Of a stretch of DNA of 44,196 nt, positions 37,725 to 38,498 are shown piece by piece (the first letter of the stretch is position 1; the number at the start of each line of letters is the position of its first letter). The notes beneath the pieces were generated by a model that did not search any database, was not told where the DNA came from, and was given only the letters and a program-made list of their open reading frames with translations. Position numbers and translations under genes: made by a program. Source of the stretch: a virus (Duplodnaviria; Heunggongvirae; Uroviricota; Caudoviricetes); IMG/VR virus record IMGVR_UViG_2778261274_000007, positions 1 through 44,196 of that record; one strand, given 5' to 3'.

Positions 37725-38498
37725 TCAAAAATTAGGTGAGTAACGGACCGGGGACATAGCTCCTTTTTTTCTTAATTCATCTGGTATTTTTTTTCCAAGA
37801 TAAAGATTTGCTATTTCAGGTGGGGCTTCTCGACCTTCAAAACCATAGCGAGAACTTTGTGTTGCCTCAAAGTCAGGATCCTCGTCCCAGTATTTCATCG
37901 TAGGGAAATTTTCACGTGTTGATTTGAGCCATTTATCAGCAATGAAAACCCCTCGAACGATCCCCCTTACAGTAGCAAGAATGACTTCTGCTTGGCTGGC
38001 GCGAGAGACATTAATGCGCCAGCTAAATCGAACCGCATCATAAAGCTCTGAATCCTTTGCACTTCTGTTAACGGAAATCATTAATGCTTTATGATGAAAT
38101 ATTATGGTTTCGGGTTGATATGTTGCTATCAACTCTTTGACATGCGCGGCGCCGAATTCATTGCTGCCAGCACCATTCATGATATTCGTTAACCCAGGGT
38201 AGGCATCAATAAGTGCAGCTTCAACTTCGTACGCCGTCTTTTCATCAGTCATTCCGTGTCGATGGATGACATGGATAACTTCAAGTCCTGCTAACCTTAT
38301 TTCTCTAATTTGCTTTAGCTTGTTGCTCAGTAACTCGTCATCATCAGTCGCTGCCACTTCACCGCGCATATGGGCAAATACGCGGTTACCTTTGCCTTTC
38401 CCTACATAGAAGGTGCTTCCGTCCCTCGGATCAATCAATCGGTATACATACCAGCCAAGGTGTTCAATTACTCCAGAAGGAAACTCAGTAATATCCAT
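37725..38498 (-). CDS. GIY-YIG nuclease-domain protein (257 aa), free-standing
   Basis: N-terminal GWYVYRL...[14 protein letters not shown] matches the GIY-YIG core; C-terminal domain unknown; AT-rich. Confidence 0.55.

Follow-up and report, generated by a model that had tools for sequence, protein, structure and literature searches.

A GIY-YIG gene beside the EcoRII pair of an e14-like prophage is very probably an ordinary copy of the type IV restriction endonuclease CMoRE (PD-T4-3)

The 44,196-nucleotide stretch of viral DNA analysed here (IMG/VR record IMGVR_UViG_2778261274_000007, positions 1 to 44,196; the whole stretch is referred to below as the window) carries an intact, ATG-started open reading frame (ORF) of 257 amino acids on the minus strand (37725..38498), which encodes a GIY-YIG nuclease. 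It is very probable (approximately 0.93) that this gene is an ordinary copy of CMoRE, also designated PD-T4-3, a single-gene restriction enzyme directed against phage DNA containing hydroxymethylcytosine (hmC) or glucosyl-hmC (ghmC), which works alone and merely adjoins an EcoRII restriction-modification (R-M) pair in a prophage cargo slot. The gene is already known, being near-identical to an experimentally and structurally characterised enzyme, and its RefSeq label ('LEM-3-like GIY-YIG domain-containing protein' or 'hypothetical protein') can be replaced by CMoRE/PD-T4-3 type IV restriction endonuclease. The practical value is therefore one of annotation, and the locus does not challenge current understanding.

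The protein was screened with the PADLOC models, where it matched PD-T4-3 over almost its entire length (residues 1-256 against profile positions 1-255 of 256; E=4.7e-140), and against the sequences in the PDB, where the matches were to 9U75/9U8D (E=2e-171) and 9U7U/9U7Z (E=7e-150), both entered as 'GIY-YIG domain-containing protein'. These entries are the CMoRE structures of E. coli O157:H7 and APEC O1, respectively (Liu et al., Nat Commun 2026; PMC12923530). Identity was 98% to the O157:H7 enzyme (252/257 residues; 9U75) and 85% to that of APEC O1 (218/257; 9U7U). Read from the window protein to the O157 protein, the five differences are T51A, E55D, I133T, Q169K and N197H (A51T, D55E, T133I, K169Q and H197N in the opposite direction). 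At the DNA level the gene is 100% identical to that encoding WP_000355481.1 in E. coli strain DP051, to which a region of 4.7 kb is also 100% identical; the DNA of the window is that of E. coli. The window gene shares with CMoRE its length, two-domain architecture, GIYxY-YIG motif, acidic lid, tetramer-interface residues and Y127, as well as a position beside pinE as in O157:H7.

The N-terminal third of the protein (residues 28-110) matched the Pfam family LEM-3_GIY-YIG (PF22945) with 54 bits against a cut-off of 27 (E=2e-14), a score which places the predicted domain far beyond chance level. GIY-YIG was the single domain found in the Pfam scan, while the NCBIfam scan returned no family for the 257-residue protein. 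The core motifs proposed from the sequence in a first-pass annotation were all confirmed by the translation, the Pfam match and an alignment of 16 family members: 15-GWYVYRL-21, 30-FYVGKG-35, R39, H43, E93 and N105. The GIYxY-YIG motif is complete (Y17, Y19 and Y31, within W16-Y17-V18-Y19 and F30-Y31-V32-G33 of the translation), so that the protein has the GIY and YIG tyrosines, arginine, glutamate and asparagine of the superfamily core, with R39, E93 and N105 invariant. Across the 16 aligned members, which come from several phyla and share 56-85% identity, Y17, Y19, Y31, R39, H43, E93, N105 and Y127 are invariant; the catalytic residues, whose absence on alignment would have counted against a nuclease, are accordingly all present. 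R80, V92, L96 and Y127 were likewise all found in the window protein. The acidic lid reads 52-DDDE-55, four acidic residues in a row, which matches APEC O1 (DDDE), the O157 lid being DDDD. The C-terminal half (residues 121-257) aligns without gaps to 9U75 and 9U7U, and the description of this domain as unassigned is outdated, as it was assigned in January 2026 as the sensor of 5-hydroxymethylcytosine (5hmC) and glucosyl-5hmC (5ghmC) (PMC12923530).

PD-T4-3 was first isolated from E. coli ECOR68 by functional selection for T4 resistance, according to PMC12923530; in its main text, the paper that described the original screen (PMC9519451) lists 'a GIY-YIG nuclease' among its hits and does not contain the token 'PD-T4-3'. 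CMoRE is described as a type IV modification-dependent endonuclease, and the single gene with its native promoter lowered plating of T2, T4 and T6 by approximately 5 logs (PMC12923530). Protection was observed at a multiplicity of infection (MOI) above 1 and cultures grew normally, indicating direct, non-abortive immunity, while host DNA read depth was unchanged in CMoRE-expressing cells, the host genome being left untouched (PMC12923530). The purified enzyme degraded DNA of T-even phages as well as 5hmC- or 5ghmC-containing PCR products, and neither bound nor cut DNA containing unmodified cytosine or 5-methylcytosine (5mC); T4(hmC) remained sensitive and T4(C) escaped (PMC12923530). Cleavage occurs at CN11/N9G, leaves 3' overhangs of 2 nt and depends on a pair of modified cytosines approximately 21 bp apart (PMC12923530). 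The enzyme is a tetramer (a dimer of dimers) which is disrupted by V92S/L96S, and its C-terminal domain binds 5hm-dCTP, Y127's main-chain oxygen touching the 5-hydroxymethyl group (PMC12923530). Its GIY-YIG domain, for which the repair enzyme UvrC is the closest structural relative, has one extra tyrosine (Y17, Y19 and Y31; 'GIYxY-YIG') and a 15-residue acidic insertion which serves as an autoinhibitory lid; the 4A mutant of this loop, its four acidic residues changed to alanine, cuts ordinary DNA and is toxic (PMC12923530). In independent work the system was active in its native host NILS69 (by deletion) and on complementation of K-12, against several Tevenvirinae, and a Capnocytophaga homologue (48% identical) was modification-dependent both in vivo and in vitro and cut Mu DNA too at high dose.

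The same activity and mechanism would be expected, with high confidence, for the window allele as for CMoRE of O157:H7, because every named functional residue is conserved. As a tetramer, the enzyme would bind 5hmC or glucosyl-5hmC through its C-terminal domains, and the GIY-YIG domain would cut between two modified cytosines approximately 21 bp apart (CN11/N9G, 2-nt 3' overhangs), while the acidic loop over the active site would block cleavage of ordinary or 5mC DNA. The predicted outcome is direct, non-abortive immunity against T-even phages. The gene would belong to the cargo of the prophage, placed in the variable slot that runs from pinE to attR, and would act independently of the adjoining EcoRII pair: EcoRII would attack unmodified CCWGG DNA and CMoRE would attack the hypermodified-cytosine phages that escape type II enzymes, the two being complementary and not coupled. 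The presence of hmC or ghmC in DNA blocks type II enzymes such as EcoRII. CMoRE is indifferent to 5mC and can therefore coexist with a Dcm-type methylase. The significance of the locus lies in complementary barriers stacked at a prophage end, EcoRII against unmodified CCWGG DNA and CMoRE against hypermodified-cytosine phages.

Several observations weigh against this assignment. The window allele differs from the crystallised O157 protein at T51, E55, I133, Q169 and N197, and three of the five differences (I133T, Q169K and N197H) fall in the sensing domain; E55 and N197 also occur in CMoRE of APEC O1, an active enzyme whose native-promoter construct gave weaker defence. Expression from the locus is presumed: when the upstream region was scanned by a simple method, no consensus sigma-70 site came up, and a consensus promoter/terminator scan of positions 37600-38900 gave no site in the 364-bp spacer between the CMoRE and methyltransferase genes. 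A promoter role is presumed for the conserved region of approximately 200 bp upstream of the gene (Table 1) because native promoters were used in PMC12923530. The remaining points concern the EcoRII pair, as 92% of R.EcoRII genes in E. coli (239/261) adjoin CMoRE; pairing with EcoRII might bring a selective advantage, and a single clonal insertion event explains the pattern equally well.

The first-pass annotation had placed the gene next to an EcoRII-type R-M pair and divergent from its methyltransferase gene, and ORF positions together with Pfam, NCBIfam and PDB matches bear this out. The CMoRE and methyltransferase genes diverge from the 364-bp spacer, and the methyltransferase and EcoRII genes are convergent. 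The longest ORF of the methyltransferase is 491 amino acids, and the RefSeq start of the identical DP051 gene lies 42 nt downstream (477 amino acids). When 5426 complete E. coli genomes were searched (CMoRE being counted at a coverage of at least 80%), the CMoRE gene was present in 823 (approximately 15%), directly beside pinE in 574, and within the whole block of pinE, CMoRE, M.EcoRII and R.EcoRII in 239, while R.EcoRII was found in 261. EcoRII therefore accompanies 239 of the 823 CMoRE copies and is missing beside 71% of them, which is not what obligatory co-occurrence predicts. Other outer neighbours of CMoRE in E. coli are an AraC-type regulator (O157:H7 and strain 98191), the retron Ec67 reverse transcriptase, a protein kinase-domain gene and a BCCT transporter. 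The locus of the window has the EcoRII R-M module on the promoter-distal side of CMoRE, whereas that of O157:H7 has a tRNA-Ser(CGA) fragment and the AraC-type gene.

Beyond E. coli, the CMoRE family comprised 6562 proteins at E<=1e-5, and the comparison took in 80 loci of species-representative genomes, spread over Proteobacteria, Planctomycetota, Acidobacteriota, Actinomycetota and further phyla. An M.EcoRII-like or R.EcoRII-like ORF within 6 kb was found at none of the 80 loci (phmmer E<=1e-3; the best stray match had E=0.038), and no neighbour family recurred in more than 6 of the 145 immediately flanking ORFs in the Pfam comparison (Phage_integrase 6, PIN 4). CMoRE is a single-component system without an obligatory partner gene, in agreement with the 274 detected systems, all of which were single-component (PMC12923530). 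The variable neighbours of CMoRE and its occurrence mostly without EcoRII tell against a functional link to the methyltransferase by the first-pass annotation's own standard, the gene being a common, independent neighbour of unrelated loci.

It is very unlikely, on these counts, that CMoRE and the EcoRII pair form one three-gene defence unit, coupled or co-regulated via the shared divergent intergenic region. Such a unit would account for the single pair of hairpin direct repeats that encloses all three genes, for the recurrence of exactly the same block in 239 of the 261 E. coli genomes with R.EcoRII, for the divergent arrangement of the CMoRE and methylase genes 364 bp apart, and for one genome, EC31, which lacks precisely the whole block. 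It conflicts with the EcoRII-less majority of E. coli copies, with the absence of a methyltransferase beside the homologues in the 80 other species, with the uniformly single-component composition of the published systems and with defence by the single cloned gene unaided; in addition, the CMoRE and EcoRII modules are separated by a degenerate hairpin, and three genomes have a full hairpin that ends the module after CMoRE alone.

The first-pass annotation had also offered three roles for the nuclease. That of a second restriction-type or abortive-infection nuclease was half right, restriction being upheld and abortive infection not. Many single-gene prophage nucleases act abortively and the acidic-loop 4A mutant is toxic, but killing of the infected cell through degradation of host and phage DNA has almost no probability left, given that cultures expressing the wild-type enzyme grew normally at MOI >1 with unchanged host read depth and that, as stated in PMC12923530, the original screen likewise saw direct defence.

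A homing-endonuclease-like mobility factor, that is, a selfish nuclease which spreads its own cassette by cutting empty sites, is similarly improbable to the point of neglect. The GIY-YIG fold is a classic one among homing endonucleases, some phage homologues carry the annotation 'putative homing nuclease', and the gene does lie in a discrete repeat-bounded module; however, unmodified DNA is uncut in vitro and the host genome intact in vivo, the C-terminal domain is a modified-cytosine sensor which binds 5hmC and not a specific sequence, the gene is outside any intron or intein and not within another gene, and the module is bounded by a hairpin and tRNA-Ser-derived sequence, as is typical of recombinase or att-type exchange.

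Equally negligible is a repair nuclease substituting for Vsr, which would nick T:G mismatches arising from 5mC deamination at CCWGG. A vsr-like gene is indeed absent from the block, as had been noted: no further ORF of at least 110 amino acids was found in 37.7-42.2 kb and the leftover ORFs had no Pfam hit. UvrC, as the closest structural relative of the nuclease domain, also fits a repair role. Against this, unmodified and 5mC DNA are neither bound nor cleaved by CMoRE, the phenotype is hmC-dependent phage restriction, and the gene occurs mostly without an adjacent C5-methyltransferase (approximately 71% of E. coli copies lack EcoRII, and a C5-methyltransferase is near none of the 80 loci from other species). 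Furthermore, E. coli normally carries a chromosomal dcm-vsr pair with the same CCWGG specificity. No Pfam or NCBIfam match to Vsr (PF03852) was obtained, and the CMoRE gene is upstream of the methylase and divergent from it, not at a dcm 3' end.

Comparison with other nucleases places CMoRE apart from each of them. It shares the GIY-YIG catalytic fold and the Tyr/Arg/Glu/Asn constellation with I-TevI-type homing endonucleases and with Eco29kI/Cfr42I, and differs from both in the extra tyrosine, the 15-residue acidic insertion and a sensing C-terminal domain without known homologue (PMC12923530), and in its requirement for modified cytosine without strict sequence specificity. An attached DNA-binding module of the I-TevI kind (zinc finger, minor-groove helix, HTH or NUMOD) was not seen, the Pfam scan having given no domain besides GIY-YIG. 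Like GmrSD/BrxU and PvuRts1I/AbaSI, CMoRE is a sensor of modification fused to a nuclease and acts against T-even-type hypermodified DNA; unlike them, it has the GIY-YIG fold and another sensor domain, and the PADLOC scan detected no sequence similarity. In cutting at a constant distance from two modified cytosines, it recalls the PvuRts1I/AbaSI pattern. McrA (EcoKMcrA of the K-12 e14 prophage) also targets modified cytosine, but in the PADLOC and Pfam scans it had no family in common with CMoRE. McrA is an HNH nuclease which recognises 5mC and 5hmC, whereas CMoRE ignores 5mC.

The features of the window that frame the gene are collected in Table 1. After the first integrase, lambdoid early genes are followed by Mu/e14-type sheath, tape-measure and baseplate genes, in agreement with the DP051 annotation. 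The 3' part of the tRNA-Thr gene is repeated before the second integrase, so that CMoRE and EcoRII occupy the final 4.5 kb, from pinE to attR, of an e14-like prophage integrated at thrW. Two mobile elements are stacked in tandem at thrW. The interval between pinE and attR is a variable cargo/defence slot; in the e14 prophage of K-12 MG1655 the gene directly after pinE is mcrA, which encodes a type IV modification-dependent enzyme, so that the slot repeatedly houses enzymes against modified DNA. A survey of E. coli defence islands (PMC10121019) makes no mention of thrW, e14, pinE, PD-T4-3 or EcoRII. The 20-nt inverted repeats upstream of pinE enclose alternative tail-fibre C-termini and tail-fibre assembly genes, as expected of a Pin-invertible host-range segment.

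Table 1. Positions of features of the CMoRE gene and its surroundings in the window.
Feature	Position	Strand	Basis or remark
GIY-YIG domain with GIYxY-YIG motif, R39, H43, E93, N105, lid 52-DDDE-55 and tetramer-interface V92/L96	38154..38498	-	PF22945, translation, family alignment; roles from PMC12923530
C-terminal 5hmC/5ghmC-sensing domain, including Y127 (predicted)	37728..38138	-	~residues 121-257, approximate boundary; alignment; function from 5hm-dCTP co-crystals in PMC12923530
Conserved upstream region of ~200 bp, presumed native promoter	38499..38699	-	Ends in CCGGTCTCGAAAACCG; near-identical in five genomic contexts, diverges beyond
Hairpin repeat copy 1 (GAAACCGTAGCACGTCGTATGCAAGATCGTGCTGCGGTT), left cargo boundary	37666..37704	+	Right after pinE stop; dG -13.3 kcal/mol, z = -4.7
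Degenerate half-copy of hairpin (GAAAACCGTAGACACATAGTATGCG), CMoRE/EcoRII module junction	38689..38713	+	Alignments with three other genomes
Hairpin repeat copy 2, right boundary of three-gene block	41836..41875	+	dG -13.8 kcal/mol, z = -3.1
M.EcoRII-type C5 cytosine methyltransferase (Dcm family, CCWGG), separate system	38863..40338	+	Pfam DNA_methylase 5e-78 and DNA_meth_N; NCBIfam PRK10458 927 bits; PADLOC MTase_II; DP051 annotation
R.EcoRII type IIE restriction endonuclease, separate system	40373..41587	-	Pfam EcoRII-N and EcoRII-C; PDB 1NA6 E=3e-243; PADLOC REase_II
pinE serine invertase of e14-like prophage	37077..37667	+	Pfam Resolvase and HTH_7; pinE in all matching genomes; RefSeq gene 555 nt, placing the start near 37113
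Inverted repeats of 20 nt	35090-35109 and 37032-37051		95% complementary, 1922 nt apart
tRNA-Thr(CGT)	1369-1444		
Tyrosine integrase	1459-2622		Directly after tRNA-Thr
attR (duplicated 3' part of tRNA-Thr)	~42237-42280		
Second integrase, P4-type	42455-43669		Straight after attR
AlpA-like ORF	43894-44196		

The description of a repeat-bounded cassette was also sound, since a 29-nt direct repeat (37676-37704 and 41847-41875; 28/29 identical) encloses the three genes, and a pattern search found 2 copies against 0 expected. It forms part of a hairpin of approximately 39 nt, GAAACCG(T/C)AG(C)CACGTCGTATGCAAGA(T/A)CGTGCTGCGGTT, whose copy beside pinE is also present in O157:H7 and 23CRST027, while the 29-nt repeat is absent from the K-12 e14 locus. 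An Rfam search of 36.5-44.2 kb returned nothing at gathering score, with CssrB below threshold on both hairpins (31 and 24 bits against a cut-off of 76). The 29-nt repeat was considered as a Pin recombination site and rejected, as the pix-type inverted repeats lie elsewhere (Table 1) and are of unrelated sequence.

Past the end of the conserved upstream region, three genomes have a full hairpin followed by the same right flank, so that CMoRE alone is a repeat-bounded module; in the window this position is occupied by the degenerate half-copy, which is followed by the EcoRII module and then by the intact second hairpin. EcoRII is thus a separate insertion beside an older CMoRE module, because the degenerate hairpin separates the two and a full hairpin closes CMoRE alone elsewhere. 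A synthetic empty-site query (pinE end, one hairpin and right flank) was matched over 100% of its length by EC31 alone (99.8% identity), and in many genomes the match to it reached 140 nt into the right flank, beyond which different cargo follows in other prophages, e.g. GF3-3; because of EC31 and these flank matches, the uninterrupted arrangement of pinE, hairpin and flank exists in nature.

The sequence CCGGTCTCGAAAACCG (38681-38699), in which the conserved upstream region ends, has exactly the sequence of the tRNA-Ser(CGA) (serU) anticodon arm, and in O157:H7 (TW14359) the exact 3' 52 nt of this tRNA stand in the hairpin's place, far from the real serU gene. ARAGORN found no intact tRNA in the related loci, the serU piece of O157:H7 being a 3' fragment only. 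The 5' part of the hairpin, GAAA(A)CCG(T/G)AG, also matches the junction between the anticodon arm and the variable arm of tRNA-Ser(CGA). The tRNA-Ser match may be what is left of an att site of the element that originally bore the CMoRE gene, and the boundaries resemble att-type or recombination sites and not the targets of a homing endonuclease.

The hairpin pattern suggests cassette-like gain and loss of defence modules. That the slot after pinE is a small cassette array, in which an undescribed recombinase-driven or att-type exchange shuffles defence modules among e14-like prophages, is a speculative and rather unlikely extension of this, the alternative being plain homologous recombination between terminator-like repeats instead of a dedicated exchange mechanism. 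The residual interest of the locus lies in this hairpin-delimited cargo architecture and the tRNA-Ser fragment, together with full-length homologues in jumbo phages.

Full-length CMoRE homologues (39-46% identity, 97-99% coverage) were encoded in 19 phage records. All 15 that were listed of these 19 are lytic jumbo phages of approximately 255-285 kb with Serratia, Pectobacterium, Pantoea or Pseudomonas as hosts, e.g. Serratia phage Moabite (NC_048792.1, 6406-7161) and Pseudomonas phage OBP (NC_016571.1, 158703-159449); the other four, whose names point to Klebsiella and Escherichia phages, are included in the count of 19 but not in the list of 15. Several of these phage homologues carry a homing-nuclease annotation; their role might be the exclusion of competing phages with hypermodified cytosine.

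Elsewhere in the window, a block of low G+C content was observed on the minus strand (12993-15432; 31-34% against approximately 52% around it). With the Q antiterminator on one side and the holin on the other, its three genes occupy the place where lambdoid 'morons' are classically found. The block encodes a 363-amino acid protein of the metallo-beta-lactamase (MBL) fold, with weak PADLOC matches (DRT-associated MBL, 2e-11; LmuA, 6e-7), and two proteins without an assigned family, and may be another uncharacterised cargo or defence module.

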